NCBI GenBank assembly: GCA_963702845.1
Contig: OY969763.1
Span: 4,448,001 to 4,512,000, forward strand
Direction of reading: 5' to 3'
Origin: an uncultured Verrucomicrobiae bacterium
Lineage (GTDB): Bacteria > Verrucomicrobiota > Verrucomicrobiia > Limisphaerales > Palsa-1400
Length of the DNA: 64,000 nt
The notes under the pieces are model-generated. The model was not told the DNA's origin and searched no databases. It worked only from the letters and a program-made list of their open reading frames with translations. Shown here in pieces: positions 5,810-53,933 of this stretch. Within the stretch, counting starts at the first letter, position 1. Each line of letters begins with the position of its first letter. The translations under genes and the position numbers were made by a program.

Positions 5810-5822
5810 AAAAAATTTTCGG

Positions 5823-7161: not shown

Positions 7162-7179
7162 CTAAAGCATCTGTGTCTC

Positions 7180-7313
7180 TTCTCATCTTTTCCTGAGCAA
7201 CGTCGCGCACTCGCGGACGTTCAAGCTGGATTTGGCACCTGTCATAACGAACGCCTTCGTTACCGGTTGCCGTGGTTTCATAGGGCCAGTCCCTCCACCA
7301 CTCTGAATGAGAT
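7180..7313 (-). ncRNA. SAM-I (S-box) riboswitch
   Basis: Minus strand TCTCATTCAGAGTGGTGGAGGGACTGGCCCTATGAAACCACGGCAACC...GGTGCCAAATCC...AAAGATGAGA matches the S-box consensus; P1 is TCTCAT/ATGAGA. Confidence 0.93.
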
Positions 7314-7394
7314 TCGTTATATCAACGAATACGGATAGATTGATTTATTGGTTGGGATCTGTCAACAGGTTTTTTACGAACCCGTAATCGCGAA

Positions 7395-8943: not shown

Positions 8944-9064
8944 AAATTAAGCGGCAGATTCTATAGCACCGACTGAGCGGATTGCAAATGGCATCTTTCG
9001 AAAAAATGGTTGCCGAAAAGGTTCGGTATGGTATCGCTGTCAACCACAACTAATAAAACTAACC

Positions 9065-9547: not shown

Positions 9548-9576
9548 CGACTGCGCGGCTGCAATCGCAGTTTCAG

Positions 9577-10572: not shown

Positions 10573-10699
10573 CGCTTTTGCAGATTACCACGGGCGAACC
10601 GCGCCACAAGTCCACAGAAACCACCTCACAACCGCCAGCCAACAATTGACAAAAAAGAGCACGGAAATTCCAGCCGGCGCTGTAAGTTTGAATACAGGT

Positions 10700-10912
10700 A
10701 TGAGTGCATCGACAGACATGACCACACTGGCGCGTCGGGAAGCCGAACTGGACGCAGCGCGCGAACTACGTTGGGTCGTAATGTATAGCGAATTGACCGG
10801 CGCGTCGGAATCGCAAGCTCGTGGCTGCTGGATGTATCTTTCAAGTCCGTCCGAGACCGAGCTTCAACTGGTTCCACTTCCCCTTGACGCTCCTTTGCCA
10901 AGTCTCGCATGA
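10700..10912 (+). CDS. Small hypothetical protein
   Basis: 70-aa ORF filling the gap before the amidase-like gene; TTGACA at 10646. Confidence 0.45.
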   Translation: MSASTDMTTLARREAELDAARELRWVVMYSELTGASESQARGCWMYLSSPSETELQLVPLPLDAPLPSLA

Positions 10913-10921
10913 TGTCCCTCT

Positions 10922-12755: not shown

Positions 12756-12759
12756 GTGG

Positions 12760-14277
12760 TCACCACGAATAGTGCACGGTGTAGGTGACAGTTTGCTCTT
12801 CGTCTGGTTTCACAGGCACATTGAATTCGATAGTTTGATCGTCGGTCTTTTTATAGTCGGTGGATTTTTCCGTGATTTCCCAACTCGGCCAGCGATAGAG
12901 ATGTTCCACGACGCGCACTCCCACTGGTGTTTTCTTGTGGTTGCGCAATTTGATTTCGAATGACTCGTCCACACCGTGCCCCTTCGTGTCCATTTTGTGA
13001 TTGGTGCGCTTGCGTTCGCCGACGATGTCGAAGGCGCTGCCGGTTGCGACGCGGATCATTTCGTCCGTGGGCGTATGATCGATAGTGTTTTCGCCGATAA
13101 ATTCCATTTGCTTGTCGGCGTCGCGACGATAGAAGCGCAGTCGACCTTTCGGAAGCGGCATGCCGAGGCGGTTCTCTTTCGAGTTTTTGAACTCGCGCAT
13201 AACCCAGACTTTCTTGTTGGACTCAGTTCCGTATTCGCGGTTGTCACGAATGGTTGCGGGGTCCCATCCATAGTAGCGATCGAGCTTGGCGCCGTCATAG
13301 ACGTAGATCGGCGAGGATTTGATGCCGTCGGCGCTGACGAATTCGACTTGTTTTGTTTCGCGGTCGAGCAGGGTCGTGGGGCGCTGCAAGATGTAGAGGT
13401 GGTATTCGTCGAAGGCTTTTTCCGTTACGACGGGAGCGGCACCGGCTGCTTCCGTTCTCGCCATGCCGAGGAGATGCCTCCGATCTTCGGGCTGGCTGAT
13501 CTTACTGACGTCGCCGGCCATTAATTTGATTTTTGCGTTATCGAAGCCTTTGCCGCTTTGGTTATCCATCGTAACCCAACCAACAAGATCAATCGTGTCG
13601 CCGTTTTCAGGCATTACGAGGTTATAGTCGGCGTGCCAACTCATGCCGCCAGTGACATAGCTTAATTCGGCGTCCACCGCACCGGCGGCGTCGCTTTGGA
13701 GCTGCCAGGTAAGCGTGGGTTTGAGAATGGTGTTATCAGTAAGCGCCGGGAAAAGCGGTGTGCCGGGAAGCTGGAACATCAACTTGCCGTCGACTTCGAT
13801 AATCGGTTGGCCGCTGCCGGCGCCGGGCGACGAAGCTTGCGCTTGTGCCGCGGCGTATTCAGGACCGTAGCGGTCGAAAGCCGGTTGATGCGGCACATAG
13901 CCGCTGCGCACGATTTTGCCTTTAACGATCTCGGTTTTGCCTTCGTTGCCAGGGAGTTGTTTTTCGAACTCGATTGTTTTGCCTTCGTAAAGGTTGAGCA
14001 ATAAGGATTCGGAGATTGGATCGGCGCGGAAATTTTGTTCGAGGATTTGCAGGTTACGCTGCCCCGTTGGATCCCGCAGCACAACCGAGTCCGGCTCGAG
14101 ATGCATCGTCGCCCCGTTATAGCTGATGTCGTTCACGCCCGACTCGAGACTGAGATGAATCGTGTCGCGGACCACAGCAAATTGTTGGTTGTAAATCGTG
14201 AGTGCCGGGGTGTCAGCGAATGCGACGTATGCGGATAAAGCTAAACCGGCAACCAGCGGGAGTTGTTTTCGCGTCAT
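12760..14277 (-). CDS. DUF4139-domain secreted protein
   Basis: LTIYNQQFAVVRD, LSYVTGGMSWHADY, LGMPLPKG, GENTIDHTP motifs. Confidence 0.85.
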   Translation of the reverse strand: MTRKQLPLVAGLALSAYVAFADTPALTIYNQQFAVVRDTIHLSLESGVNDISYNGATMHLEPDSVVLRDPTGQRNLQILEQNFRADPISESLLLNLYEGKTIEFEKQLPGNEGKTEIVKGKIVRSGYVPHQPAFDRYGPEYAAAQAQASSPGAGSGQPIIEVDGKLMFQLPGTPLFPALTDNTILKPTLTWQLQSDAAGAVDAELSYVTGGMSWHADYNLVMPENGDTIDLVGWVTMDNQSGKGFDNAKIKLMAGDVSKISQPEDRRHLLGMARTEAAGAAPVVTEKAFDEYHLYILQRPTTLLDRETKQVEFVSADGIKSSPIYVYDGAKLDRYYGWDPATIRDNREYGTESNKKVWVMREFKNSKENRLGMPLPKGRLRFYRRDADKQMEFIGENTIDHTPTDEMIRVATGSAFDIVGERKRTNHKMDTKGHGVDESFEIKLRNHKKTPVGVRVVEHLYRWPSWEITEKSTDYKKTDDQTIEFNVPVKPDEEQTVTYTVHYSW

Positions 14278-39878: not shown

Positions 39879-42383
39879 CTATGGATTCACCACCACCCGA
39901 TAATAGCTCACCCCCGCCACCGCATTCGTATCCAACAACACCATCGGCGCGCCCGTCACGCCACCTTGCGAGCCGCCAACATTTGAAAATCCCACTGCCA
40001 CCGGCGTCGCCGACCGTTGCAATTGAAAAACATGTCCCGAATAACCCGGCATCGTCACCGTCACTAAACTATTTGTGCGCACCACCGATCCGATTTGTAT
40101 CGAGCTCGCCGTCAACACCCGTCCATTCACCCCATTCACAAAACCCGCCGGCAACGTCGCGCTGCCGTTAATCAAATCCAAAATCCCATTATTCACGAAC
40201 GCCGTCGCCAGATGCGCATCCAACGTCCCGCTCCCGATAAATCGCATCGTGCCATTATTCGTGACCGCCCCCTTCAACACCATCGCGCCCGCCGTGCTCT
40301 TCGTGACCAAACCACCGGCATTCACCGTCAACGCGCCATTCAGCGTTCCACTTCCATCATACGTCCCGCTGTCCAACACCGGCCCCGCAATCGTCCCGCC
40401 ATTCAGCAACGTCGCGCCTGCACCGATCGTGACGACCGTATTCGCCAGCGACCCAGCCGCCGCAATCGACAACGTCCCGCCAAGCACCAACGTCGGCCCC
40501 GTATAAAGTTCCCCGCTCGCCAACGTTTCCGTGCCGGCGCCGACTTTTGTAAAACACAACTTTCCCGCACCATCAAACATCGCACCCGAAAAACTGCCGC
40601 TCCCGTCCCCTGAGCCGACCGTCAAAGTTGACGTCCCGCTCGAGCTATAAACCAAATTGCCGCCTGATCCATTGAACGCACCCACCGTCACCGACGCCGA
40701 ATTCAACGTCAAATACCCAACGCCACCAACCAGCAACGGCCCGTTCGGATCACCCAACGTTCCCGTGCTCGCGACCTGCAACACACCATTACTCACAATC
40801 GTCCCGCCCGTGTAAGAATTCGCGCCCGCCAGCGTCAACGTTCCCGAGCCGTTCTTCACAATCGCTGCCGGCGATCCACTCCAACCACCGATCGTTCCAT
40901 TAATCGTTTGATTCGCGGTAATATTAAAACTCGTGGTACCGCCCAGAAGAAACATATCCGTGCCACTCGTCGAACCGCCCTGCGTTGAAATCTGCGTATT
41001 CGGCCCACCGACACCCGCCGTCAAAGTCCCTTCGCTCACAAACGTGCAATCAAAAGTCGACAGCGACGCGCCATTATCCGCGCGCACAAAAATCGCTCCG
41101 CCCAGCGCCGCACCACCGCCGCCATTGCCATAATTAACATTCCCATAACCTTGCCCGGCAAAAGGTCCACCCGCAGCTCCTCCCCCACCGCCGCCGCCAC
41201 CAAACCCACCAACACCACCGCCAGCGTCACTCCCGCCACCGCCACCGCCGAACCCGCCATGTCCTCCCGATCCATAATAAAATCCAGAATACGGTGGAGC
41301 GCTTAAAACATAGATCGACCCTGAGCCGCCACCGCCAAAATCCCCGCCGTTACCGCCGGTGCGACCGCCGCCACCTCCGCCATAACGACCACCATTACCA
41401 CCCGCGCCTGACAAATTCGTATAAGTCCCGCCACCACCTCCACCGCCGCCGTAAATCGAACCGCCCACTCCATTCTTCGTAACCGCGCCGCCATTGCCAC
41501 CCGCCTTCGTTCCCGATGCATCATTGCCGCCGGGTCCGCCAGTGCTGATAAAACTCGGATTCGATCCATTCCCCCCTCCCGTGTAAGCCCCACCTCCACC
41601 ACCAGCCTCAACGGCTCCAGCGCCGCCACCGCCAAAAATTCCACCACCACCACCGCCGCAATCATCCTCTCCCGATCCACCCGCGCCGAACCAACCGCCA
41701 CCGCCGCCGCATGGTCCATGCCCGCCCGGCCCATTCAACCCACCGCCACCACCACCCACAAAATTCCCTTGCCCCGCCAGCACCACCCCGCCGCCATTGC
41801 CACCGACCGCCGAACAATTTTGAAACGACACATGATCCAATACTACCGTCCCGGCGTTCACAAAAATTCCGCCACCGAGACCAGCCCCACCGCCACCGCC
41901 ATAACTATCCACCCCACCCGCGCCGCCGATAGCTTTGCCATTCGCAATCTTCCAATACGAAATCGTCACCGCCTGGCCCGGAGCATCAATGAAGAACACA
42001 CGATTGTTCCCCTGCGCATCAATCAAACTGTCCGCTTGCGGGCTTCCCTGGAAAACCTCAATCGTCATATTCGTCGTGATCGGCGGCAACGGATACGTCA
42101 GCTTGAAACTACTCGCCCCTCCGACAAACGTATCCGAAACAATCACCGAACCGCCGTGCGCATTCGCCTGGACAATACACCACCGCAAATCCCCCGCCGC
42201 CGAACTCAACGACTGCCCAACCCCAACCGCCCCGTTATCCGTCTGCAACGCCACATTATAAACAGTCGTGGCACGCACCCTCACCGTTGCCAGTAAAACG
42301 AAAGCGAAGATCAAAAAAACTCGGAGAGACAAATTACAAGAGTCCCAAAACCAAACCAGCATGCGCGGCAGAGTAGTATTCAT
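39879..42383 (-). CDS. Glycine-rich secreted protein with autotransporter-associated beta-strand repeats
   Basis: GDLRWCIVQAN, GGGGAGLGGGIFV, long Gly-rich tract, KNGSGTLTLAGANSYTGGTIV and KVGAGTETL repeats; no C-terminal beta-barrel. Confidence 0.85.
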   Translation of the reverse strand: MNTTLPRMLVWFWDSCNLSLRVFLIFAFVLLATVRVRATTVYNVALQTDNGAVGVGQSLSSAAGDLRWCIVQANAHGGSVIVSDTFVGGASSFKLTYPLPPITTNMTIEVFQGSPQADSLIDAQGNNRVFFIDAPGQAVTISYWKIANGKAIGGAGGVDSYGGGGGAGLGGGIFVNAGTVVLDHVSFQNCSAVGGNGGGVVLAGQGNFVGGGGGGLNGPGGHGPCGGGGGWFGAGGSGEDDCGGGGGGIFGGGGAGAVEAGGGGGAYTGGGNGSNPSFISTGGPGGNDASGTKAGGNGGAVTKNGVGGSIYGGGGGGGGTYTNLSGAGGNGGRYGGGGGGRTGGNGGDFGGGGSGSIYVLSAPPYSGFYYGSGGHGGFGGGGGGSDAGGGVGGFGGGGGGGGAAGGPFAGQGYGNVNYGNGGGGAALGGAIFVRADNGASLSTFDCTFVSEGTLTAGVGGPNTQISTQGGSTSGTDMFLLGGTTSFNITANQTINGTIGGWSGSPAAIVKNGSGTLTLAGANSYTGGTIVSNGVLQVASTGTLGDPNGPLLVGGVGYLTLNSASVTVGAFNGSGGNLVYSSSGTSTLTVGSGDGSGSFSGAMFDGAGKLCFTKVGAGTETLASGELYTGPTLVLGGTLSIAAAGSLANTVVTIGAGATLLNGGTIAGPVLDSGTYDGSGTLNGALTVNAGGLVTKSTAGAMVLKGAVTNNGTMRFIGSGTLDAHLATAFVNNGILDLINGSATLPAGFVNGVNGRVLTASSIQIGSVVRTNSLVTVTMPGYSGHVFQLQRSATPVAVGFSNVGGSQGGVTGAPMVLLDTNAVAGVSYYRVVVNP

Positions 42384-42466
42384 AAACGCCGCTGTGGCGG
42401 GTAAATCGTAGAAGCGGCTGCTCCCCATCCTGTCAAACAACCCGCAGGAACACAATCTATTACAAG

Positions 42467-42733
42467 TCAGGTAGGAACGGTCGCGAGGGGCCGTCCGTCA
42501 GGCCCCATCCCGCCGTGCCACGAAAAATAAGGATCAGCCACCCCATTCGTCGTCCTCGAATGACACTTCAGACAATTCGAAACCGGAAGAAATCGATAAT
42601 CATGCTCCTTCGGCTGCGACCCCGGCAAAATGATTTCAGCGCGAGAAGCACCACCAAAGAAAAACATACCAACGCAAAACAAAACCATCCGCGTGAAGAC
42701 CAGAGATTTTTTGAAAAAGGAAAAGTTATTCAC
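42467..42733 (-). pseudogene. Truncated c-type cytochrome N-terminal fragment
   Basis: Signal peptide, PGSQP, CLKCH heme motif, SWHGGM; the ORF then runs into a GTAG REP (42471-42497) and stops. Confidence 0.6.
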
Positions 42734-42960
42734 GACTCAACTAGCACCCGATTTTGGTAACCACCTCAACAAGTAGCGAGCTTTTATCAGCCCCGATTAG
42801 CCGCCCCTTTGAAATGAAATTTGAGATCCCCGCTGAATTGAAAGATTGCACTCCGCTACGCTTGTCGTATAAAAACCACCATTAGCCACAATCTGCAATA
42901 TTTTGCATGTTCGCATTTGACGGCAAATCTGCTGGTTTGCATTGCGGTTCGCACGTCCTT

Positions 42961-43557
42961 ATGAATTCCATCGACCCGGGAGCATCGAGTCGAGGAAACC
43001 ATTCTGGTACCGTGGTCGTTCTGGCTAGTGGAGGGATCGATTCAACGGCATGCATCTGGTTTTACCTCTCCCGGGGCTCCAGCGTGGAAGCGCTGTTTAT
43101 CGACTATGGGCAGCGGTCTGCCAAGAAGGAGGAAGAGGCGGTCCGCAATGTGGCCGCGCATTTTCAAATCAAACTTCGAGTTTTTCGATGTCAGCTCGGC
43201 GAATTCGGTCCAGGATTGGTTCTTGGCCGGAACGGCTTTTTCCTGAACTTAGCCTTGGTCGCGATGGGAACGAGTTTCGCAATTATTGCGATAGGTGTTC
43301 ACGCAGGGACCTCTTACTTCGATTGTTCTCAGACCTTCGTTCGAGAGATGCAGAAGCTTTTCGATTTACAAACTGATGGTTTGGTGCAAATCGGAACGCC
43401 TTTCATAGATTGGGAAAAGCCTGCAATTTTGCACTATTGCTTAGTCAATGGGCTACCTGTTGATCTGACGTACAGTTGCGAAAATGGGCAAATTCAGCCG
43501 TGCGATTGTTGCTTGTCCTGTAACGATCTCAAAAACTTTTATGCAATGGCTAGGTAG
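42961..43557 (+). CDS. cap9: QueC-like (7-cyano-7-deazaguanine synthase family) protein; type IV CBASS Cap9
   Basis: PP-loop VLASGGIDST, FIDYGQ, GRN, DCS, Zn site TYSC..PCDCCLSC; operonic with TGT-like and CD-NTase genes. Confidence 0.85.
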   Translation: MNSIDPGASSRGNHSGTVVVLASGGIDSTACIWFYLSRGSSVEALFIDYGQRSAKKEEEAVRNVAAHFQIKLRVFRCQLGEFGPGLVLGRNGFFLNLALVAMGTSFAIIAIGVHAGTSYFDCSQTFVREMQKLFDLQTDGLVQIGTPFIDWEKPAILHYCLVNGLPVDLTYSCENGQIQPCDCCLSCNDLKNFYAMAR

Positions 43558-44581
43558 ATCTACAACAATTGTTCACCCTTTGGGCGGCAAATGTAAAACG
43601 CCGTTGCTAGTTCCGTCTTTCTCTAGCAGAGGCTTTGCGATGAAGAAGGGGCTATATTCTGTTCGGCAATTAGTGGAACTCGCCGCACCAGAACTGCACG
43701 AGAGCGTCCTGATAAGCGCCTATGACATAGGAAAAAAGTATTTCCCACCGATGTCAAAGGTCCCGCTAAATGTCGAGCTTTCGTTCGTGGATAGCGGTGG
43801 CTACGAAACTGGGGGCGACACTGACCTTTCATCCGTTCGTAATGATCCAGTGTTAGACCGACAGTGGAACGCGGAAAAACTTAAGACCGTATACGACCAT
43901 TGGCCTGCAAAAAAACCAGCAGTTTTCGTAAACTTTGATCACGCGAGCAAACGGAAGCGCATCTCACAACAAATAAAATCTGCTCGCCTCCTTTTTGATA
44001 ATTATCCGAAACAATTACATTGTTTTCTCATAAAGCCGGAGACACGAAGCCAAATCTACCTCGGGCCAACTCTGCAACACGTCCGCAAAAATGTCGAAGA
44101 ACTGCAAGGCTTTGCGATTATCGGCATGACAGAAAAAGAACTTGGTGATTCATTTCTTGAACGGATGAAAAACATCTCTGAACTGAGGCTCGCAATGGAT
44201 GCCAAGCAAGTGACCGCTCCTATTCATGTCTTCGGTTCGCTAGATCCTCTGTCTTCAAGCCTGTATTTCTTGGCGGGAGCCGAGATATTCGATGGATTGA
44301 CCTGGTTGCGCTATGCTTACAGTCAAGGCGCTTGTGTGTATCGCCATAATTATTCTGCGATGGTGCACGATTTAGAATTAAAGGATGCAGCATTCATCGG
44401 AAAGCTCCTCGGGCACAATTTATCCGAACTCAGAAAGCTTCAGGGTGCAATGCGGCTTTCAGCACTCGAAAAGAATTTTGATGGCTTTTTGATGAAGGGG
44501 GAATCCTGGACTGCGTCATTTGCCGCTAAACTCACTGATGCCTATAATTCACTTCGCGGTGCATTGGAGGGGAGGATCTAA
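43541..44581 (+). CDS. cap10: TGT (tRNA-guanine transglycosylase)-like TIM-barrel protein; type IV CBASS Cap10
   Basis: TPLLVPSFSS, FVDSGGYE (TGT DSGG motif), PIHVFG, GAEIFDG; overlaps Cap9 stop and CD-NTase start. Confidence 0.8.
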   Translation: MQWLGRSTTIVHPLGGKCKTPLLVPSFSSRGFAMKKGLYSVRQLVELAAPELHESVLISAYDIGKKYFPPMSKVPLNVELSFVDSGGYETGGDTDLSSVRNDPVLDRQWNAEKLKTVYDHWPAKKPAVFVNFDHASKRKRISQQIKSARLLFDNYPKQLHCFLIKPETRSQIYLGPTLQHVRKNVEELQGFAIIGMTEKELGDSFLERMKNISELRLAMDAKQVTAPIHVFGSLDPLSSSLYFLAGAEIFDGLTWLRYAYSQGACVYRHNYSAMVHDLELKDAAFIGKLLGHNLSELRKLQGAMRLSALEKNFDGFLMKGESWTASFAAKLTDAYNSLRGALEGRI

Positions 44582-45519
44582 TGGGTGGCTCAAGTTCAGG
44601 TTCGTCGTCTTCGTACAATTTCAACTCCGCAGCTGCGCGGAAAGACATGCGCCAAGAGCTGGGGAAGCTTCAAGACGACTTGGAGCGTCAGAAGTTTGAT
44701 GTGGAAGTCGCTGAGGTCATATCCGAATCGCTCAGCGAAATGAACTCCCGAGATGTAGAAGCCAACAACCGCACGTTAAACGCGATAAAAGCGGCACTAG
44801 AAAAAGAAATTGATGGATCAATAGATTTGATGTTCGGCGGTTCGGTTAAAAAGCACACTTATGTGGATGGCCTGAGCGACATCGATACGTTGGTAATACT
44901 GAATAAATCGGACCTTGCGCAAAAGACGCCAGATGAAGTGCGGGCTTACTTTGCCGAACGGCTTACCGAACGCTTTCCTGACGCTACCGTGCTCACCGGA
45001 CGATTGGCGGTTACTGTTAGATTTAACAACACTGAAATTCAATTGTTGCCCGCACTGAAACATGACAATGCGCTGAAGATTCCAAAAGCTGATGGTGATG
45101 GCTGGTCTAGAATAAAGCCAAAGGAGTTCACCGCCGCCCTTACGGCGGTGAACCAAGCATTGGGTGGCAAATTGGTTCCAACTATAAAATTGGCGAAATC
45201 AGTCATTGCTGACTTACCAAAAGAGCAGCGATTGAGCGGCTATCACATTGAGGCGCTTGCGATTCAGATTTTCCGTGGCTATAGCGGAACTCGCACGACC
45301 AAGAATCTCATAACAGAATTTTTTGCAAAGGCATCGGAACATCTAAGACAGCCAATCGCAGATCGAACGGGCCAATCCACATACGTCGACGAATACCTTG
45401 GCCGTGCAGACAGTAACAAACGGCAACAGTTCGGCCAGTTGATGGATCGTATAGCCGTAAGGATGGCCAACGCAGATCGAGACAAATCCCTAAGCCAATG
45501 GACCGACATTCTGAAATGA
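44581..45519 (+). CDS. cGAS/DncV-like nucleotidyltransferase (CD-NTase, SMODS)
   Basis: FGGSVKKHTYVDGLSDIDTLVIL (hGS...DhD), AVTVRF, LVPTIKLAK, LSGYHIE, IADRTG; GGAGG RBS and TAATG coupling. Confidence 0.88.
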   Translation: MGGSSSGSSSSYNFNSAAARKDMRQELGKLQDDLERQKFDVEVAEVISESLSEMNSRDVEANNRTLNAIKAALEKEIDGSIDLMFGGSVKKHTYVDGLSDIDTLVILNKSDLAQKTPDEVRAYFAERLTERFPDATVLTGRLAVTVRFNNTEIQLLPALKHDNALKIPKADGDGWSRIKPKEFTAALTAVNQALGGKLVPTIKLAKSVIADLPKEQRLSGYHIEALAIQIFRGYSGTRTTKNLITEFFAKASEHLRQPIADRTGQSTYVDEYLGRADSNKRQQFGQLMDRIAVRMANADRDKSLSQWTDILK

Positions 45520-45538
45520 TTTTCGCTTGCACTGCTCT

Positions 45539-46252
45539 ATGAAGAAATCTTTATGGGCAGATTTCTGCTTCCGCTCAAAACTCGCATGCGCATATACAGT
45601 TGCGAAAAGACATGTTTTGCACGCGGGATTTCATGATGAAATCGAATGGCAAGCCAAAAGAGATTTGTCAGACGTTTCCGAAGAGAGTTTTTTGCGAGAA
45701 GCAGCGTGGGTAATCTTCTCGAGCGGCATGAGGGAGTCTGTGATTAGAAGACACTTTGCCGACATTGGTGAGGCATATTTTAAGTTCCGCTCAGCCTCGT
45801 TAATTGAATCTAATCGCAAACGATGCAGGCTTCGAGCTTTGGAGTGCTTCAATCATCGCGGGAAGGTGAATGCTGTTTTGGATGTGGCAAGGCACGTGGC
45901 AGATGTGGGTTTTACACAAGTAGTAGATCGGTTAAAACGTGAGCCTATTGAATACTTATCTCAATTCTCATACTTGGGGCCGGCAACCGCTCGTCATCTC
46001 GCCAAGAATTTAGGCATGAAGATTGCAAAGCCTGATCGCCACCTTCAGCGCGTTTCCTCGCTTTTCGGCTACACGTCACCCGATCAGATGTGTTCGGCGA
46101 TAGCCTCTATCGTACGCGAGGATGTTTCAGTTATCGACCTAGTGATTTGGAGGTTCGCAACACTCGATAAGAATTATCTCGATTTTTTTGGACTGGTGTT
46201 CTCGAACACGAGGATATCAGAACTTTCGAAGTCCCGCACATATGAAACTTAG
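45539..46252 (+). CDS. cap11: HhH N-glycosylase/DNA lyase (OGG-like); type IV CBASS Cap11
   Basis: FLREAAWVIFSSG, HhH FSYLGPATARHLAKNLG, KPDRHL, DLVIWR. Confidence 0.75.
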   Translation: MKKSLWADFCFRSKLACAYTVAKRHVLHAGFHDEIEWQAKRDLSDVSEESFLREAAWVIFSSGMRESVIRRHFADIGEAYFKFRSASLIESNRKRCRLRALECFNHRGKVNAVLDVARHVADVGFTQVVDRLKREPIEYLSQFSYLGPATARHLAKNLGMKIAKPDRHLQRVSSLFGYTSPDQMCSAIASIVREDVSVIDLVIWRFATLDKNYLDFFGLVFSNTRISELSKSRTYET

Positions 46253-47408
46253 TGGGCGCAGAATCCATATTGCAGGCAGTGCAGATGTTGAGGCAGATCC
46301 GACTAAACTGCGATACGTGCATTCTTTGATCGCGCAGTTGACGATGAGTTTGGCAAAAGAGGGCGCAACTTTTGTAATTTCATTTACGAAGGAACCGTAT
46401 CTCAAGGATCGTAACGAGGGGCCGTCGATTTTATACGATTGGACAGTAGCGGAAAAACTCCACGAGATGTTGATGGAAGGTACGGTTAATCCATCTGGAC
46501 CAAATGGTCGTCTAATTTTCACTCTTGCGACCATAAAGACGGATGCCAACATCCCACCCCATCGTCGAGTTTTGTACGATCAGCTTCGCGACAAATCCGC
46601 GGTCCATATGGAACTCCTGAACCCCGGTTGGACGGCAGGAGCAATTCAAAGGCAGCGGCAGGCCCAACTAGGCGATATTTTTATTGGAATCAGCGGAGGC
46701 CAAGGGGTTGAGCAGTTGGCGCTTGAATATTCGACAAAAGGCAAGCCGGTTATTCCCCTTGATATCCAAGTCGGTTCGTCTCAGAGGGATGGGTCTGGAG
46801 GAGCTGGTCGGCTTTTTGATCGTGCACTGGCAAATCCGTCCGACTTCTTACGGGTTAAAGATGGCGCATCTCCTGCTGAATTACTTGATCGGACCAGGAC
46901 ACGAGATGGTGAAACACCTATAGAAAAGGTTGTTTCGTCAACGATGAACCTTTTGCACAATTTGGCAGATCCTCGGGTCTTTTATGTGAGACTGCTCAAT
47001 GATTCTGTTTCTGAGTATGCGTCAGTAGAGGTGTTCTTCCGGCAGACGGTTGACAAGCTAGTCACCGAATTGGGATATGAATACCTCCAGATGGGAATCG
47101 GAAAAAACGAATTTGCATGGATGAATGAAGCTATTTTCGATTCTTTGCACCATAGCTCTGTGGCGCTTGTCGATCTTACCGCCCTCCGCCCCAATTGCTT
47201 TATGGAGTTAGGCTATGCTTTGGGCAACATGCAACGCGTTATCGTCACCGCACGCGCAGACACGCGCATTTCGTTCGACGCTTTTGCTCTTGAAGCGTTC
47301 CAGTGGACCGAAAATGAGGATCCAATGACGCAATTGGATCGACTGCGAAGTCATTGGATACGCAACATCAACATGCCGCGGCTGGTGCGGCCAAAGGAAG
47401 CGAAATGA
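46242..47408 (+). CDS. Putative CBASS effector: SLOG-like (Cap17-N/TPALS-like) domain fused to a nucleoside 2-deoxyribosyltransferase/TIR-like domain
   Basis: N-terminal RRIHIAGSA, R.RQAQLGDIFIGISGGQGVE, GKPVIPLD (SLOG/LOG-like); C-terminal VDLTALRPNCFMELGYALG..RVIV. Confidence 0.7.
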   Translation: MKLSGRRIHIAGSADVEADPTKLRYVHSLIAQLTMSLAKEGATFVISFTKEPYLKDRNEGPSILYDWTVAEKLHEMLMEGTVNPSGPNGRLIFTLATIKTDANIPPHRRVLYDQLRDKSAVHMELLNPGWTAGAIQRQRQAQLGDIFIGISGGQGVEQLALEYSTKGKPVIPLDIQVGSSQRDGSGGAGRLFDRALANPSDFLRVKDGASPAELLDRTRTRDGETPIEKVVSSTMNLLHNLADPRVFYVRLLNDSVSEYASVEVFFRQTVDKLVTELGYEYLQMGIGKNEFAWMNEAIFDSLHHSSVALVDLTALRPNCFMELGYALGNMQRVIVTARADTRISFDAFALEAFQWTENEDPMTQLDRLRSHWIRNINMPRLVRPKEAK

Positions 47409-47950
47409 AGAGCGAAGCATATTTTTCTGTGGATGTCGAATCGGCAGGCCCAATTCCGGGAATGTACAGCATGCTATCGCTCGGTGCCTGCCTTGTTGAA
47501 GATTATGGGCAAACTTTTTACGTAGAGTTTAAGCCAATTACAAAGAGCTTTATTCCAGCCGCGCTGGACGTATCAGGCTTAGATTTGGACACCTTAGAAC
47601 GTACGGGGGTACCGCCCGATGTTGCCATGAAAAACTTTGGCGAATGGATTCTAAAATCAGCTGGCGAACGCACTCCAGTCTTCGTCGGCTTTAACGGCTG
47701 TTACGATTGGCAGTTTGTTAACTGGTACTTCCATTCATTTACAAACCACAATCCCTTCGGTTTTGGAGGGATTGACATAAAATCTTACTTTATGGGTTTG
47801 AGCGGGCGGGAATGGTCGCAAACCACATCGAGCCAGTTGCCCGAACAATTTCATCCCGATGTTGCTCAGACCCATAACGCACTCGATGATGCGCGAGCTC
47901 AGGCATCGATTTTCCGAAAGATGCTGAAAGAGCACAGCGGGCGCCCTTGA
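47405..47950 (+). CDS. DEDDh 3'-5' exonuclease, Cap18-like
   Basis: ExoI SVDVESAGPIPG.YSMLSLGAC, ExoII FNGCYDW, ExoIII HNALDDA; ATGA-coupled to the effector. Confidence 0.85.
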   Translation: MKSEAYFSVDVESAGPIPGMYSMLSLGACLVEDYGQTFYVEFKPITKSFIPAALDVSGLDLDTLERTGVPPDVAMKNFGEWILKSAGERTPVFVGFNGCYDWQFVNWYFHSFTNHNPFGFGGIDIKSYFMGLSGREWSQTTSSQLPEQFHPDVAQTHNALDDARAQASIFRKMLKEHSGRP

Positions 47951-48017
47951 AACTTTTAGTCGTAAGTAGAAAAGTCAGCTCACAGTTGTCGGCTCATCAG
48001 AAAGCTCTCTTCGCCGC

Positions 48018-48152
48018 CTATAAAACCAAATCAGCAGCAGCATTGTCTTCAACATGAGCAGGGTTCTTACAGCCTGGAATGACTGCGGACACGGTCTGAT
48101 TCTTTAGGCACCAAGCCAAAGCCCATTGACTCAATTTGACACCTTCGGGAAT
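48018..48152 (-). pseudogene. Orphan duplicate of the 3' end of the aldo/keto reductase gene
   Basis: Encodes IPEGVKLSQWALAWCLKNQTVSAVIPGCKNPAHVEDNAAADLVL*, nearly identical to the C-terminus encoded at about 57700-57837. Confidence 0.9.
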
Positions 48153-48688
48153 GCGAAGCCTTCGTGGCAACGCATGCAAATGCGATCGCCACCGCCCAAC
48201 CCGAGATCCCCAACCAACTCAACGACCGCGCCGCCGACATCTGGGAACCGCTTCTCGTCCTGGCCGACATCGCTGGCGGCGACTGGCCACAAAAAGCGCG
48301 CACCGCCGCCATCGCCCTCAGCACTCGCGGCAATGAATCCAACCCCATCGGCGCACTCTTCCTGGACATCCTCCTTTGTTATACTGCAAACAACACCGAC
48401 CGCCTCCACACCCGCGACATCCTTGATTATCTTCAGCACAGAGGCATGCGACCATGGAACGAAACGTTAAAAAAACCGATCAACGACCTCTGGCTCGCCC
48501 AACAACTCCGACCGTACGGCATCCGTCCGCGCAGCACCCGCATCGCCGGCGTTCAGGCCAAGGGTTACTACGAGAGCGACATGCTCGACGCGTTCCGCCG
48601 CTACGTTCCAGAAAGCGAAATCAACCGCGTCCAGGAAGAAATCGCAAACAATGAAGAAGAGCCCGAAAATAAATCCGCCGCTGCTTAA
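48153..48688 (+). pseudogene. DUF3631-domain fragment (C-terminal part of a phage/plasmid replication protein)
   Basis: LNDRAADIWEPLL.LADIAGGDWP..AR.AA, LAQQLRPYGIRP, AKGY, DAFRRY; no convincing N-terminus. Confidence 0.75.
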
Positions 48689-48692
48689 AACG

Positions 48693-48811
48693 GTAGGGAC
48701 GATCGCGCGGTTCGCGGAAGCGAACATCAAAATAATTTGTTCGAATCTCCGTCGTCCGCTGACCTTTCAAATCTCAAATCGGCAGGTAGGGATCGCGCGC
48801 CGCGCGGTCCG
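48693..48811 (+). repeat. ~68-bp repeat copy 2 followed by a GTAG REP
   Basis: 48693-48760 matches 39568-39635; GTAGGGATCGCGCGCCGCGCGGTCC at 48786. Confidence 0.8.
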
Positions 48812-49078
48812 ACAACCCCGAAGTGGGTTGAAGCATCCAGCCCAGGCCCACGCGCCCGCGTCCCCAAAATAATTTGTTCTGATGTGGTTAGGGCAACAGG
48901 GACCTACCCTGGGTAAAAACCCAAAAAGCGAATCTTCACGACAGCGCGACGAAGGAGTTAATGGAATTTTAGTCGTCTTGCAGACGTCGAACTGGTTCAG
49001 CGAACCCGCTCCAACGTTCTTGTCCTTCATCCTATGCTTGTCACGTACGGGCAGGCGCTCTTAGTATTTGTGCAAACC

Positions 49079-50179
49079 ATGGGACACACAGCTACGTTTA
49101 GAGCTCTTCAAGCTGCTGAACGAAGGCAGCAACGCGAGGAGCAAAGCCTGCGACGAGAATATGAACGGCAGGCGAAAGAACGCGAGAAACTATCCGCTAT
49201 TGAGCAGGCTCGGCTCGAGGTTCGGCTTTACGAAAATCAGCTGAATCTCCTGCTATCGATGCACAAGGAATACCGACCAGCATGGGACTGGGCGGCAGTA
49301 GCTTCTGCATTGCCGCCGCTGCCACCCAAAAGAAATCCAGCGAACGAATTCAAAGCCATGTTGCAGTTGGCGCTGACGGAGATAGAGCAAAAGGCGACCG
49401 GCGAGTCATTTCTTGAACAGGCAAGGGCGACGGACGACTGTGATTTCGAAGCCGCGAAGCTGTCGTATTGTGGTGACCTGATTAAGTGGGAGAAACTTCG
49501 TAAGTTGGCGCAACGAATTCTGATCGGTGAGCATAAGGCATATACTCAAGCACTACTGGACTTAAACCCTTTCGCTGAACTGTCGTATCTAGGCTCTTCA
49601 ATCAATTTGACTGTCCACAACTCGCGCTTTGTCGAATGCTCCCTGAAGGTCAATGGCAAACAAGCGATACCTAGTGAAACAAAAAGCTTAACGGCCACGG
49701 AAAAGCTCTCGACTAAGCCGATGTCCAAAGCTCGATTCCACGAGGTATACACCGAATACATCTGCTCGTGTGTTTTGCGCGTTGCGCTAGAAGTTATTGC
49801 GCTGTTGCCAACCGACGATTTGATTGTCACCGCGATCGCCGACGTAACGGAGCAACAATCAGGACGGTCTATCGAAAAACCGGTTCTTTCGATTTTGATT
49901 TCGCGGATTCATGTAGAAGCCACGAACTTCAATGACCTGAACGCGTACGATGCCATTGAAGCTCTCACTCACCGAGGCGATCTCCGTGGCACTCGCAAAT
50001 TGGAGTTCCGCGAAATCAGTCCACTGAAGCCTGAAGATTTGTCCCATGTCGCACACGAACATTTAGAGTTGTCCGCGCTGATTTCTAAAGGCCGAAAGCA
50101 ATGTGAAGAAATGCGACTGGCGGCCTCTGAATACAAGCGGCGCGCGGATGCCGCGACTGCAGAAACAACACCAGTATGA
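49079..50179 (+). CDS. Hypothetical protein (N-terminal coiled coil, conserved alpha/beta C-terminal region) coupled to the DUF4041 nuclease gene
   Basis: IP..TKSLT..KLSTK.M..RF.E.Y..YICSCVLRVA.E..ALLP; ATGA overlap with next gene. Confidence 0.75.
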   Translation: MGHTATFRALQAAERRQQREEQSLRREYERQAKEREKLSAIEQARLEVRLYENQLNLLLSMHKEYRPAWDWAAVASALPPLPPKRNPANEFKAMLQLALTEIEQKATGESFLEQARATDDCDFEAAKLSYCGDLIKWEKLRKLAQRILIGEHKAYTQALLDLNPFAELSYLGSSINLTVHNSRFVECSLKVNGKQAIPSETKSLTATEKLSTKPMSKARFHEVYTEYICSCVLRVALEVIALLPTDDLIVTAIADVTEQQSGRSIEKPVLSILISRIHVEATNFNDLNAYDAIEALTHRGDLRGTRKLEFREISPLKPEDLSHVAHEHLELSALISKGRKQCEEMRLAASEYKRRADAATAETTPV

Positions 50180-51967
50180 CGATCACGTTTGCAATCTTGT
50201 TCGCTGTTAGCCTGGCTTTATTAATTTTTCTCGCGCTCAAAAACCAGCGACTGGAGGCAGAACTGAATCGCGTAAACACCGAAACGCAGCAGGCAATCGC
50301 GGCTGCCGAAAAAGCCGGCGAAGATCGGGTGTCGCTTGTTCGACAGCAGGCGGAAGCAGCCGTTTCACAGGCTCAGAGAATTGTTGATCAACAGTTCACT
50401 CAATTCCAGCAGGATGCTGATCGGGTGCGTGAGTATTACGAAGTCGAGGCCCGCAAGGTTCAAGCTGAAGCAAGCGCTCAAGCCGCAGAAATCATTGCCG
50501 AGCTGGAGCCCTTACGGCGCTACCAGCACCTTCGTGACGCCGAGCAGCAAGCACACCAAGCGCTTTCCATCGCGATGAACGAAGCGAGCGTATTGCGAAC
50601 CGAAGCTCAATCGCTGCTTGAACAAGCGCGTAACGCTGCACGCGCGGAGCGGACGCAAGCTCTGCAACGAGCGAAATCCCTGCGCGAGCAAGCAGACGCT
50701 CTGCTGAATCAAGCCACCAAAGATGCCGGACGCATAATTGCCGAATCGGAAAAGCGCGCGGAGGAAATCGGAGGCGATGCTTACCGTGCGTTGAGAGAAA
50801 AAGACACGCTGGGACAAGCGGTAGAAGCGTTGAGGAATGTGGTTGAAGGCTACGGAAACAAATACCTAGTGCCGACGCACAGCTTATTGGACGACCTTGC
50901 AGCGGAGTTCGGTTACGCTGCTGCAGGCGAGTCATTAAGGTCTGCCCGTGATCTATCGAGGCGGATGGTCGAACAAGGAGACGCGGCTGCGTGTGACTAT
51001 GTTGAAGCAGTGCGTAAGAACACCGCAGTTCAATTCGTTGTCCATGCATTCAATGGCCGCGTTGATGCAATCTTATCACGAGTGAGGTACGACAATTATG
51101 GGATTTTAGATCAACAGATACGCGATGCGTTTAGCCTTTAGCCTTGTGAACAAAGATGGGCAGGCCTTCAGGAACGCACGCATACTTTCCACTTATCTAG
51201 ATGCCAGACTCGCGGAATTGAAATGGGCCGTCATTGTTCAAGATCTAGCGCGCCAACGTCAGGAAGAGCAGCGGGCCATTCGTGAGGAAATTCGCGACCG
51301 CGAACTTGCGGAAAAAGAGCGCAAACAGAAAGAACAGCGAGCTGCGGAAGAAGAAGAATTGAAGCGCAAGGCAGTTGCCGAAGCAGAAGCTCGGTTTGCC
51401 AAGGCAGCAGCGGATGAAAAAGACCAAATGCAGAGGCAACTGGACGAGGCACGCAAGCAATTGGAGGAGGCGACCGCTCAGAAGCTTCAAATCTCGCAAC
51501 AGACGAAGGTCGGACACGTATATGTCCTATCGAACATTGGTTCGTTTGGAGACGGCGATCCGAACGGACGCCGCATGTACAAAATCGGCGAAACGCAACG
51601 GGAACCTGAGGTTCGGGTAAAAGAGCTAGGCGGAGCCAGCGTTCCATTTGAGTTTGACATACATGCGGTAATCGAGACCGAAAATTCGCGGGCGCTTGAA
51701 CATAAACTCCACAAGATTTTTGCCAGCACACGAGTCAACAAGATGAATCTTAGGAAGGAATTTTTCCGAGTGACGCTATCTGAGATTCAGGCCGAACTTA
51801 AAAATCTCAAACAAGGCGTTGATTACATACGTTTGACTTGGACAGAGGAAGCTCGGGCCATGCAGTGGAAAGAAACTCGCGACATTGAAAGCGATGCGCA
51901 CAAGCTTCAAGAATGGGAACAGAATTCCGCCCGGCGCCGATTAGGCACTGATGATGAAATAGCGTAG
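50176..51967 (+). pseudogene. TM-coiled coil-DUF4041-GIY-YIG (T5orf172/MUG113) nuclease, PD-lambda-1/SNIPE-like, split by a 7-bp duplication
   Basis: N-terminal TM; AFNGRVDAIL...YLDARLAEL (DUF4041); GHVYVLSNIGSFG, YKIG, ELGGASVPFEFDIH, RKEFF; TTAGCCT doubled at 51131-51144. Confidence 0.85.
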
Positions 51968-51986
51968 CGTCTCACATCCGTAATGT

Positions 51987-52262
51987 GCTCAGCGACGGTG
52001 ATTGCGTCGTCTTGATCAAAAATTTGAAATTGGGCGGTGCCAATCAGGTTCTCAAAGGCGGCTCCAAATCCATTCGTCTCGTGGACGGCATTTTCATCGC
52101 GCTGAAAGCCTGTTTCGTAAAGAAGGCGTGAAAATCGGACTTCAGGCAGGCAGGTATGAGATGCGCGCGAGGAGTGTGCTTCGAAATTTCGCCAGTGACG
52201 CCTGTGACCCGTCCCACATGACGGGTCAAAAGTGCAAAACAATGTTTACAGGCCTTGGGACG
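51987..52262 (+). repeat. Direct repeat copy 1: 3' half of a yjdM/phnA-like gene plus dispersed element copy B (52195-52262)
   Basis: Near-identical to 53221-53530; carries an internal deletion between GTGGACGGC microhomologies. Confidence 0.92.
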
Positions 52263-52676
52263 CTCACTTTTTAACCCTCAGGCTCTGCTCATATTTTTAC
52301 GACGACGAATACGAGTGGAAGCTGGATTTAAACCAATCGTCCAAACACATCGAAAAAGTCGCCGGCATCCCCGTTTTAGTTTTCGCGAAGAACGGTTACG
52401 GCGTGCTTCGATTTTCTCAGGCACCTATTTTTGCCGGAGGATATGTCACCCTTGCTCAGAAGGCCCCAGTCCTCGCTGCAGTAAAAACCGAACCGGCGTT
52501 GCGTCATAGAGGTAGCAACTTCTTGGTTTGACGAATGGCACAAGTGGTTTGAGGCTGTTTTTCAGGAGGAGGAACTATGGGTGGCTTACGGATGTTACTG
52601 TCGCTTTGTCGGCACCAACGCACCACGGCAATTACCGCTCCGCTCGAGCCAATCTATTTTTAAAGGAGGATCGTTT

Positions 52677-53012
52677 ATGAGAAACCACATACAGATTCTT
52701 TGTGTCGCTGCAATGTTGGCTACGCTTTCCATCGCGCATGCTTATAGCGGTCCGGCGCTTATGGATCCTTCTCCTACATCGCCCACCTCGCCAACGCCGC
52801 CTACGCCTAAACCACCCGCCCCAAAGCCACCTACACCGCCGCCGCCGTCGCCGCCGAAAGACATCACTTTTGATGCGTATTCCTTTGGCCGCGTGAGCGA
52901 AAGCGGATCGTTGGACGCGCGACGGGTGTGGTCGCTTCTTTGGACAAGGATCGATACTGGTGCCGCGCTGGAATCGCTGGTTCATGAAGTTGGACGGGAA
53001 GGTCGGAGATAA
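52677..53012 (+). CDS. Small proline-rich secreted hypothetical protein
   Basis: Strong AAGGAGG RBS, signal peptide ending AHA, PSPTSPTSPTPPTPKPPAPKPPTPPPP. Confidence 0.65.
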   Translation: MRNHIQILCVAAMLATLSIAHAYSGPALMDPSPTSPTSPTPPTPKPPAPKPPTPPPPSPPKDITFDAYSFGRVSESGSLDARRVWSLLWTRIDTGAALESLVHEVGREGRR

Positions 53013-53082
53013 TGCAGGACCGATGTAGAGCCGCCTGACACTTGATTGCTGTTTGGGCAACACCCGTTACCCTGCTCTCTTA

Positions 53083-53395
53083 ATGAGTAAACCTGTCTGC
53101 CCGATGTGTGAGATGACCGATGTTCTCGAATTTCCTCAAAAATGGGAATGCGTCACTTGCGGTCACGAATGGGAACGCGCGCCTGAACCGGAAGCAGCAG
53201 CCGGCCCGCGCGTCGTCTGCGCTCAGCGACGGCGATTGCGTCGTCTTGATCAAGGATTTGAAATTGGGCGGTGGCAATCAGGTTCTCAAAGGCGGCTCCA
53301 AATCCATTCGTCTCGTGGACGGCGATCACGAGATTGACTGCAAGGTGGACGGCATTTCCATCGCGCTGAAAGCCTGTTTCGTAAAGAAGGCGTGA
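53083..53395 (+). pseudogene. YjdM/PhnA zinc-ribbon protein, frameshifted near 53218
   Basis: [14 protein letters not shown] in one frame, [14 protein letters not shown]...[25 protein letters not shown] in another. Confidence 0.85.
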
Positions 53396-53458
53396 AAATC
53401 GGACTTCAGGCAGGCAGGTATGAGTATGCGCGCGAGGAGTGTGCTTCGAATTTCGCCC

Positions 53459-53531
53459 GTGACGCCTGTGCCCAGTCCCACATGACGGGTCAAAAGTGCA
53501 AAATTACCAATGTTTACAGGCCTTGGGACGG
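53459..53531 (+). repeat. Dispersed element copy C (degenerate palindrome)
   Basis: GTCCCACATGACGGGTCAAAAGTGCAAAATTACCAATGTTTACAGGCCTTGGGACGG. Confidence 0.85.
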
Positions 53532-53933
53532 CGCGACGCGGTTGGGAGCTGTCGTCTTGCCAAATGCCGGAACGATCCAGAAGTGGACGCACTGCGTTCA
53601 GCGGACAAATCAGAACGTTTTTGCGTGCTGATGCTTACGTTCTTTTTGATCTTTTTTGGTTTCCCTGCGCAGTTCCGCCTCTGCTTGAAACCAGTGGTCC
53701 TGGCCGCGACCCTCTGGCTTGCCTTCACGTTCCCAGATTTCGAACGCCCGTTTTGAAATATCTTCGAAAGTTATTTTCATAACCATCAAGTTATCGCTCG
53801 ACTCGTTTGTTTTCTATTAAGGTTATCGCTGAATTCCTGCGAGAGCATTGAACTTTGCGCGGAGCGTCTACTCCCACCCAACTGATCTTCTGGTTTAGTT
53901 TGCTCTTCAGCTTGGGGGGCGGCACCTGGTCAA

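Follow-up and report, generated by a model that had tools for sequence, protein, structure and literature searches.

The window analyzed here is a 64,000-nucleotide stretch of the genome of an uncultured Verrucomicrobiae bacterium (contig OY969763.1, positions 4,448,001 to 4,512,000). Between positions 42907 or 42961 and 47950 of the window, six open reading frames (ORFs) lie on the + strand, overlapping or nearly abutting one another, and read as an operon of a cyclic-oligonucleotide-based antiphage signaling system (CBASS). The features are listed below, each ORF with the PADLOC model that it matches.

42456 to 42960, no strand: intergenic region from the divergent PATR-repeat gene to cap9, presumed operon promoter.
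42961 to 43557, + strand (alternative start ATG 42907): cap9, QueC-like ATP-dependent ligase; PADLOC QueC PDLC00911, model positions 5-186 of 190, E 2.8e-65, 218 bits.
43484 to 44581, + strand (alternative start ATG 43541): cap10, TGT-like barrel; PADLOC TGT PDLC00913, model positions 15-311 of 326, E 4.2e-95.
44581 to 45519, + strand: cdnD, cGAS/DncV-like nucleotidyltransferase (CD-NTase; a cyclase) of the type IV clade; PADLOC oligonucleotide cyclase PDLC00790, model positions 3-307 of 310, E 7.1e-116.
45527 to 46252, + strand (alternative start ATG 45539): cap11, OGG-like helix-hairpin-helix glycosylase; PADLOC OGG PDLC00910, model positions 8-212 of 215, E 1.5e-78.
46242 to 47408, + strand: effector, 388 residues, TPALS/SLOG domain plus a domain resembling nucleoside 2-deoxyribosyltransferases (NDTs) and TIR domains; PADLOC 'TIR' PDLC00733, model positions 3-382 of 388, E 5.1e-83.
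47405 to 47950, + strand: Cap18-type DEDDh exonuclease (Exo), 181 residues; PADLOC 'Exonuclease' PDLC00753, model positions 3-180 of 184, E 2e-73.

Each of the six ORFs matches its model over almost the full model length (E 2.8e-65 to 7.1e-116), which is well outside chance expectation and shows that all six frames are intact. The junctions are tight. Cap9 and Cap10 overlap by at most 74 nucleotides, or by 17 with the alternative Cap10 start at ATG 43541; the last base of the Cap10 stop codon is also the first of the CdnD start codon (TAATG at 44581), with GGAGG just before it; 7-19 nucleotides separate CdnD from Cap11; cap11 ends 11 nucleotides into the effector gene, which begins at ATG 46242; and the effector stop and Exo start are both contained in ATGA at 47405-47408. 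Translation appears to be coupled at every junction of the operon. Two starts were refined: the effector begins at ATG 46242 (388 residues), as in more than 100 homologues, and not at TTG 46188 (406 residues), and Exo begins at ATG 47405, giving 181 rather than 198 residues, as judged from the alignment with PDB entry 7T2S and from related loci (180-184 residues). The G+C content is 0.481 in 42961-47950, compared with 0.549 over the 8.5 kb that precede the operon and 0.540 for the part of the window not covered by 42456-53899. The original prediction, made from the DNA letters, had described six co-oriented, overlapping or near-abutting intact genes, more AT-rich than their flanks, and had named all six; the junctions, the composition and matches in PADLOC, Pfam, NCBIfam and the PDB agree with it in each respect.

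The first four genes, cap9, cap10, cdnD and cap11, are assigned to the type IV CBASS core. In the type IV system studied by Wassarman et al. (10.1101/2025.04.06.647259), Cap9 uses ATP and 7-carboxy-7-deazaguanine to ligate 7-amido-7-deazaguanine (NDG) to Gly2 of CdnD; Cap10 keeps the modified tail bound in an inactive 2:2 complex, and a transfer of this tail by Cap10 to another target has been proposed; and Cap11, present in about a third of type IV systems, is not needed for defence and is proposed to be a negative regulator. The same work reports that type IV cyclases all begin M(G/S)G(G/S)GG and that type IV CBASS is spread over diverse bacterial phyla and archaea; the original prediction had placed it mainly in archaea and Firmicutes, a view that has to be given up.

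The four proteins of the window fit this scheme. Cap9 matches Pfam QueC (PF06508, E 5.7e-30) and scores far under the cut-off of the canonical QueC equivalog (TIGR00364, 87.9 bits versus 150.3), as expected of a Cap9. Its translation shows a PP-loop, SGGIDS (the SxGxDS pyrophosphate-binding motif), and a C-terminal cysteine cluster, and we predict that it conjugates NDG to the CdnD N-terminus. Cap10 has no match to Pfam TGT at E<=0.01. It aligns with Rhizobiales Cap10 (PDB 9NTN_A, E 7.7e-50) and, in Rhizobiales numbering, keeps the nucleobase read-out residues D73, S74, D122 and K154 and the catalytic pair H226/D248; it is predicted to bind NDG-modified CdnD. For the protein at 44581, grouping with nucleotidyltransferases other than CD-NTases had been named in advance as a possible refutation; it scores 276 bits on NCBIfam CBASS_cyclase_b (cut-off 200), also matches Pfam SMODS, and aligns with the solved Rhizobiales CdnD (PDB 9NTN_G/9NTO, E 2e-71). 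Residues G86-G87-S88 and D100/D102 are invariant across 25 homologues. The Gly/Ser-rich tail, MGGSSSGSSSS, fits the published motif at Gly2 and positions 1-4 and has Ser-Ser instead of Gly-Gly at positions 5-6; the tail also varies among close CdnD relatives (MGGSGSN, MGASSSR). Cap11, here too a proposed negative regulator, matches PADLOC OGG only, with no sequence match in Pfam, NCBIfam or the PDB. The type III regulators HORMA and TRIP13 are absent from the six ORFs and the flanking ORFs.

Downstream of this core lies the effector. Its N-terminus matches the complete Pfam Cap17-like_N model (PF18178, positions 1-232 of 232, E 2.3e-43, 148.6 bits). The family is large: a word-indexed search gave 862 matches, those listed (119, not counting the window's own protein) have 62-74% identity to it and almost all measure 388 residues, and an exhaustive search gave 415 clusters at 50% identity. 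We found no solved structure related to the effector by sequence. An AlphaFold2 model built from 64 sequences has a predicted local distance difference test (pLDDT) score of 92.7, and a structure search with it shows that the N-terminal two-thirds resemble SLOG domains, among them the ThsA SLOG domain with 3' cyclic ADP-ribose (3'cADPR), ShosA, DprA and TRPM2. The TPALS domain of Cap17 was taken as a signal-binding domain by Rousset et al. (10.1101/2023.01.24.525353), and the SLOG-like model fits the Cap17-like_N/TPALS match. We predict that the TPALS/SLOG domain of the window effector (approximately residues 1-240) senses the signal.

The C-terminal domain (approximately residues 241-388) differs from that of Cap17. 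No PNP_UDP_1 domain (PF01048, the ATP-nucleosidase domain of Cap17) was found in the effector at E<=0.01, nor does the C-domain match any Pfam TIR or NDT model. The PADLOC model for PN-superfamily effectors aligns only to residues 20-255. Folded alone, the C-terminal 148 residues gave a pLDDT of 91.6. With this model, the matches listed by Foldseek are mainly nucleoside 2-deoxyribosyltransferases, the CMP N-glycosidases MilB and BcmB, and DNPH1, and no TIR chain is among those listed. An independent comparison with VIA-align, in which rows at most one Z unit apart count as ties, placed MilB at Z 12.9, NDTs at 12.1-12.4, TIR-1 at 11.8, the SARM1 TIR at 11.7, the SfSTING TIR at 10.7 and ThsB at 10.5. 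The profile of the effector family has non-significant matches to Cap12 (E 0.16), Rcl (E 0.6) and PycTIR (E 0.75), all on the motif lT.lRpNcf.ElGyalG around Glu322 (codon 47205-47207). This candidate catalytic residue is unchanged in a set of 21 homologues, and in a set of 64 its conservation is 90% or higher. We read the C-domain as a predicted NDT/TIR-like N-glycosidase. The effector was also considered as a Cap17 and ruled out: because its C-domain lacks the PNP fold and is NDT/TIR-like instead, the protein is Cap17-N-like but not Cap17.

The last gene of the operon encodes Exo, which is exonuclease fold throughout its 181 residues, with no sensor domain. It matches the Pfam families Rv2179c-like and RNase_T and aligns with the 3'-5' exonuclease 7T2S_A over residues 20-190 (171 residues, E 2e-49). 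We take 7T2S to be Cap18 of E. coli upec-117, because the Exo preprint (10.1101/2025.03.04.641389) cites a crystal structure of the upec-117 enzyme, and not from the name of the PDB record. The names Cap17 and Cap18 come from the CapW paper, where they were given to proteins of a type III operon (10.1101/2022.01.04.474952); the original prediction, too, had traced both to type III loci. That prediction had also regarded Exo as a nuclease output. Such a reading would make Exo an additional effector that degrades nucleic acids under the control of the cyclase, and would give the operon two outputs. It draws on the membership of Exo in the DEDDh family, on PADLOC filing its model under 'Effector', and on a 2023 review in which Cap18 degrades single-stranded DNA or RNA with no need for a cyclic oligonucleotide (PMC10419184). 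Published work points elsewhere, to a threshold-setting regulator of the cyclase. According to the Exo preprint, enzymes of this clade, that of upec-117 included, lack DNA and RNA nuclease activity; they selectively cut 2'-5'-linked linear cyclase intermediates and set the activation threshold, and their loss is toxic. In upec-117, a catalytic-dead cap18 left protection unchanged (10.1101/2022.01.04.474952), and the window protein has no sensor domain. On this evidence a role for Exo as a cyclase brake is more probable than one as an effector, and the two-output reading is unlikely. The Exo preprint finds such enzymes in approximately 4% of CBASS operons, chiefly of types II and III.

We asked in which contexts the effector and Exo occur. 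When genomes were searched with the effector alone, seven loci were found, with effectors 60-73% identical. Six are type III operons composed of a cyclase (PDLC00808), HORMA, TRIP13, effector and Exo; the seventh, on a Planctomycetota contig, has the effector, Cap9 and Cap10 before the contig ends. From the side of the cyclase, we classified 80 metagenomic loci, drawn from at least 595 stretches, with type IV CdnD homologues 41-53% identical. A two-transmembrane (2TM)/SLATT effector (PDLC00681) lies directly after cdnD and before cap11 in 61 of the 80 (50 as full ORFs and 11 by tblastn). Six have a diverged OGG-like gene after cdnD, five of them with a PDC-M50A-like gene upstream of cap9; in eight the contig ends right after cdnD; and five (L051, L057, L059, L064 and L074) carry a TPALS effector and/or Exo, which is 5 of the 72 type IV loci that could be judged. 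In these five, cap11 directly follows cdnD with no 2TM gene, like in the window, and the cassette lies upstream on the same strand (L057, L059 and L064) or downstream in convergent orientation (L051 and L074). The gene content of the window operon recurs in these loci and in L006.

Absence of the six-gene order elsewhere had also been named in advance as a possible refutation. The order recurs exactly in L101, the one locus found by a scan of a viral collection. The identities of the six proteins are 41, 41, 42, 45, 34 and 49%, and the retention of the order at just 34-49% identity argues for selection on the ensemble. The combination of a type IV core with TPALS effector and Exo is a recurrent minority subtype whose order is conserved at great divergence. 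The original prediction had called the operon a hybrid of a type IV core with a Cap17-N-like soluble effector and a Cap18-like exonuclease; this is borne out by the distribution of the pair, which lies in type III operons in six of the seven closest genomic relatives and occurs in only 5 of the 80 type IV loci.

Some observations on the relatives stand on their own. In L101 (IMG/VR, 28,295 nucleotides), the six genes occupy 3246-8191 and adjoin a GH108 lysozyme with a peptidoglycan-binding domain (8996-9553, - strand) and a phage-tail protein of 1100 residues (10646-13948, - strand); this CBASS subtype thus appears to be carried on a (pro)phage as well. The loci L031, L046, L052, L056, L060 and L068 represent a third type IV sub-architecture, with a protein of approximately 243 residues and a faint Ogg-HhH match after CdnD and, in five of the six, a protein of 175-190 residues with weak PDC-M50A similarity upstream of cap9; neither a 2TM nor a TPALS gene was observed in the six. 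Together with L038, whose architecture is unclassed, they form one well-supported CdnD clade. An effector 73% identical to that of the window (P0007) and a type IV CdnD 48% identical (P0183) may share one contig, judging only from the equal length (15,162 nucleotides) of the longest contig given for each; this would be one more type IV locus with an effector like that of the window.

The phylogenies are quick IQ-TREE searches with Shimodaira-Hasegawa approximate likelihood-ratio (SH-aLRT) supports only. In the effector tree (12 rows of known context and 29 representatives without known context), the window effector nests with support 100 in a clade of eight that includes six type III effectors and L006. 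Elsewhere in the tree are L051 with L101 (support 95) and L057 with L064 (support 100). The type III or IV label changes three times, and all three changes are forced by well-supported branches. The CdnD tree includes the window and 75 of the 80 loci; the other five, in which no CdnD ORF reaches 270 residues, were excluded. On it the TPALS label changes three times, at least twice by necessity, and the window CdnD has a long branch (0.79) and lacks a partner with support. The closest effector from the type III operons is 73% identical (L001), while the cyclase beside it matches the window CdnD at 22% over 98 residues (E 0.059). The identities of Exo track those of the effector: 59-66% to type III loci and, to type IV loci, 49-53% where complete and 59% for a fragment at the end of L059.

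The mostly type III company of the effector clade (six of seven loci), the isolated position of CdnD on its 0.79 branch and the decayed genes of the surrounding island (a DUF3631 fragment and a split PD-Lambda-1 homologue, described below) could be taken to mean that two unrelated pieces lie side by side with no coupling, namely a type IV core now devoid of its former 2TM effector and, beside it, effector and Exo genes stranded from a decayed type III system. The sequence of the locus argues against this, with cap11 running 11 nucleotides into the effector gene and all six frames intact. So do the relatives, since no fewer than seven further loci have the same content, arranged in three ways and spread over separate effector clades, with CdnD followed directly by Cap11 and no 2TM gene, and in the same order in L101. 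We consider a chance juxtaposition very improbable. A Thoeris-like reading, after the published cap9-cap11 Thoeris operons (10.64898/2025.12.03.692087) and the TIR-like structural neighbours of the effector C-domain, is hardly credible, because the Gly/Ser-rich tail is on a bona fide CD-NTase and not on the TIR-like protein, which begins MKLSGRRIHIAG with no Gly-rich tail, has its TIR-like domain fused to a SLOG sensor in a receiver architecture, and matches a CBASS effector model over its full length.

We return to the reading of the operon as a type IV CBASS with an exchanged output module. The effector and Exo appear to move as a unit between CBASS types that are differently regulated. Tentatively, and with slightly less than even confidence, we extend this to a broader proposal: the TPALS-NDT/TIR effector and Exo may form a portable cassette that has been exchanged repeatedly between type III (HORMA/TRIP13) and type IV (deazaguanylation) systems, the two cyclase clades may make the same or cross-activating signals, and the signal may be built through a 2'-5'-linked intermediate. 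The shared signal is suggested since the effectors are 60-73% identical while their partner cyclases are barely alignable; the intermediate is predicted for type IV because a 2'-5'-specific exonuclease is constant company. If this is true, the system of the window would provide a soluble enzyme whose activity could be read out to identify the signal of type IV CBASS and its activation trigger, and it would have two stacked brakes, Cap11 and Exo, on one cyclase.

The host genome is a single contig of 6.03 Mb. Its Prs is 88-93% identical to proteins named Limisphaerales, Verrucomicrobiota or Verrucomicrobiae, in agreement with the verrucomicrobial host that had been predicted. Upstream of the operon, on the opposite strand, are housekeeping genes (L9, SSB, Pth, L25 and Prs) and the PATR-repeat gene, which is autotransporter-like; downstream are a fragment of DUF3631, an ORF of 381 residues without assignment, a PncA-NAPRTase fusion and a second defence gene. 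The operon thus sits in an island of approximately 11 kb with defence and mobile-element remnants, whose further features are as follows.

39879 to 42455, - strand: PATR-repeat (autotransporter passenger-like) protein, 858 residues, bordering the island; the gene carries many degenerate Pro/Gly-coding repeats (family D1).
48164 to 48688, + strand: DUF3631 fragment, 174 residues, covering DUF3631 positions 35-182 only (131.7 bits); probably a remnant of a P4-like mobile element beside the operon.
50176 to 51141 and 51125 to 51967, + strand: PD-Lambda-1 homologue (DUF4041 and T5orf172) split into two overlapping ORFs, which match approximately positions 40-229 and 229-481 of the 491-position model; read as a frameshifted or decayed second defence gene of the island.
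51984 to 52262 and 53218 to 53530: direct repeat pair of approximately 280-310 nucleotides, 95-100% identical in blocks (families D2-D4, D6 and D8); the copies consist of gapless blocks of 23-106 nucleotides, approximately 1264 nucleotides apart, and flank approximately 1 kb at the downstream edge of the island.

The repeat search gave no direct repeats bounding the operon itself, and there is no tRNA in the 64-kb window. A sample of 400 other genomes of the phylum gave no match to the effector model; taken with the low G+C content, this indicates horizontal acquisition.

The substrate of Cap9 would have to come from the host. The genome encodes FolE (184.8 bits), QueD (123.7 bits) and a canonical TGT (511 bits), along with a radical-SAM gene of QueE-like type that scores 262 bits, under the curated cut-off of 300; together these genes occupy host contig positions 3081999-3082343, 5326836-5327531, 2621501-2622562 and 982194-982733. 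FolE, QueD and the QueE-like gene give a route to the Cap9 substrate, and a supply of 7-carboxy-7-deazaguanine in the host is plausible. Neither canonical QueC nor QueF was found in the host genome, whose QueC family consists solely of cap9 and a QatC-like gene. The latter (4822649-4824697 of the host contig, + strand, 682 residues; NF041925 211.7 bits, cut-off 280) resembles the QueC-like protein of the Qat anti-phage system and lies approximately 310 kb past the end of the window, a second QueC-family defence gene in a host without housekeeping QueC. We considered whether the host keeps QueD and QueE only to feed defence and dropped the idea: the QueE-like gene is present in 30 of 31 genomes of the same order (the window's included) and canonical QueC exceeds its cut-off in only 3 of 31, a gap in the queuosine pathway that is therefore lineage-wide and not tied to the operon, and the effector model was not found in the separate sample of 400 genomes.

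The host has a second, unrelated CBASS (L110, positions 1950000-1962000 of the host contig), with CapP (190 bits), a protein with an E1-E2-like stretch, a cyclase of 434 residues (PDLC00796, 649 bits) and a 2TM effector (PDLC00695, 274 bits). A CBASS-type TRIP13 was not found genome-wide: the best match scores 58 bits (a generic AAA+ protein), compared with approximately 375 bits in true type III loci, and matches at this generic level were seen in all 14 of 14 control genomes. The possibility that the window effector serves another system was rejected on these grounds, as there is no CBASS-type TRIP13 and the sole other cyclase, 2.5 Mb away, belongs to a CBASS with its own 2TM effector and CapP.

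Based on these observations, we propose with good confidence that the locus is a horizontally acquired, intact type IV CBASS anti-phage operon with an exchanged output module. In the mechanism we envisage, Cap9 would use ATP and 7-carboxy-7-deazaguanine to place NDG on Gly2 of CdnD. Cap10 would keep NDG-CdnD inactive and, on infection, would probably transfer it to another target, turning the cyclase on, a transfer that Cap11 probably undoes. These steps are modeled on the Rhizobiales homologue, through homology and conserved residues. Active CdnD would then make a cyclic oligonucleotide, while Exo would degrade released linear 2'-5'-linked intermediates such that a signal builds up only under strong activation, as reported for three homologous exonucleases (10.1101/2025.03.04.641389). 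The cyclic oligonucleotide would be bound by the TPALS/SLOG domain of the effector, and the NDT/TIR-like domain would cleave the N-glycosidic bond of an essential nucleotide (NAD+ or a nucleotide phosphate), by which the phage would be starved and the cell arrested or killed. For cyclase and effector these assignments follow from domain identity.

Several points weigh against this interpretation. The evidence for the locus is computational throughout. The CdnD tail, MGGSSS, deviates from the published M(G/S)G(G/S)GG. For the effector C-domain, NDT-like and TIR-like neighbours are tied (Z 12.9 versus 11.8), and the profile matches are non-significant (E 0.16-0.75). The QueE-like gene is under its curated cut-off and is common to nearly all relatives in the order. 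The promoter scan gave no operon promoter: no sigma-70-like site was found upstream of cap9, and 42300-48400 contains three where 6.9 are expected by chance, although the sigma-70 consensus may not suit this phylum. Since catalytic-dead cap18 left upec-117 protection unchanged, the role of Exo may be subtle. Finally, the architecture counts come from the classified sample of 80 loci, and the nearest CdnD relatives of the window (81-87% identity), out of roughly 2,056 CdnD homologues, lie outside it.

Every part of the operon belongs to a known family, all of them in the PADLOC CBASS set, and the combination recurs in nature; the operon is an uncharacterized combination of known CBASS parts. 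In the literature searched, which leaves most subscription journals and published operon tables outside, we found no account of type IV CBASS that includes a TPALS/TIR effector or an exonuclease. For annotation the lesson is an ordinary one: CBASS effectors are interchangeable modules, and standard tools would label the operon as CBASS. Modular exchange of effectors is reportedly (Millman, 2020, is said to have made the point) the usual mode of CBASS variation. Type IV CBASS has so far been dissected in one proteobacterial operon. The locus and its relatives suggest that a deazaguanylation-controlled core can drive a soluble, predicted nucleotide-cleaving enzyme in place of a membrane protein, with an output that would lend itself to in vitro assays. 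That the effector is nearly identical in type III and type IV contexts leads to a testable prediction, a signal shared between very different cyclase clades, and the presence of Exo would extend the recently proposed threshold mechanism to a fourth CBASS type.

Comparing the operon with known systems shows what is shared and what differs. The Rhizobiales type IV CBASS (9NTN and 9NTO; Wassarman et al., 10.1101/2025.04.06.647259) has the same four-protein regulatory core, and the window shares with it the read-out and catalytic residues of Cap10, Gly2 and the DxD motif of CdnD, and the PP-loop of Cap9. Among the sampled type IV relatives, most (61 of 80) insert 2TM/SLATT between cdnD and cap11, whereas in the window cap11 comes directly and is followed by the TPALS-NDT/TIR-like enzyme and Exo. 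With the type III operons that carry Cap17 and Cap18 (E. coli upec-117 and KTE188; 10.1101/2022.01.04.474952 and 10.1101/2023.01.24.525353), the window shares the TPALS/PF18178 domain and a Cap18-like Exo; unlike them, it has no HORMA or TRIP13, and the effector C-domain is NDT/TIR-like and not the PNP ATP-nucleosidase of Cap17. Judged by homology to 7T2S, its Exo belongs to the same DEDDh clade as the CBASS-associated enzymes SmExo, VcExo and EcExo (10.1101/2025.03.04.641389), and is likewise small, stand-alone and at the end of the operon. Those described in that preprint are mostly from types II and III, whereas the window Exo accompanies a type IV core with the proposed brake Cap11, and its linkage specificity is predicted.

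The fold predicted for the effector C-domain resembles those of Cap12 (TIR-STING, 7UN8), PycTIR (8JSJ), DNPH1/Rcl and MilB (Z 10.7-12.9). Cap12, PycTIR and Rcl align to its motif at the conserved Glu, with non-significant sequence similarity. Unlike the fusions to STING or to cyclic-nucleotide-binding domains, the C-domain here is fused to a TPALS/SLOG sensor. The Thoeris operons with cap9, cap10 and cap11 (10.64898/2025.12.03.692087) have the same deazaguanylation trio beside a TIR-like protein. There the TIR protein replaces the cyclase as the modified signal generator, whereas in the window it is the CD-NTase that carries the tail and the TIR-like domain is on the receiver.

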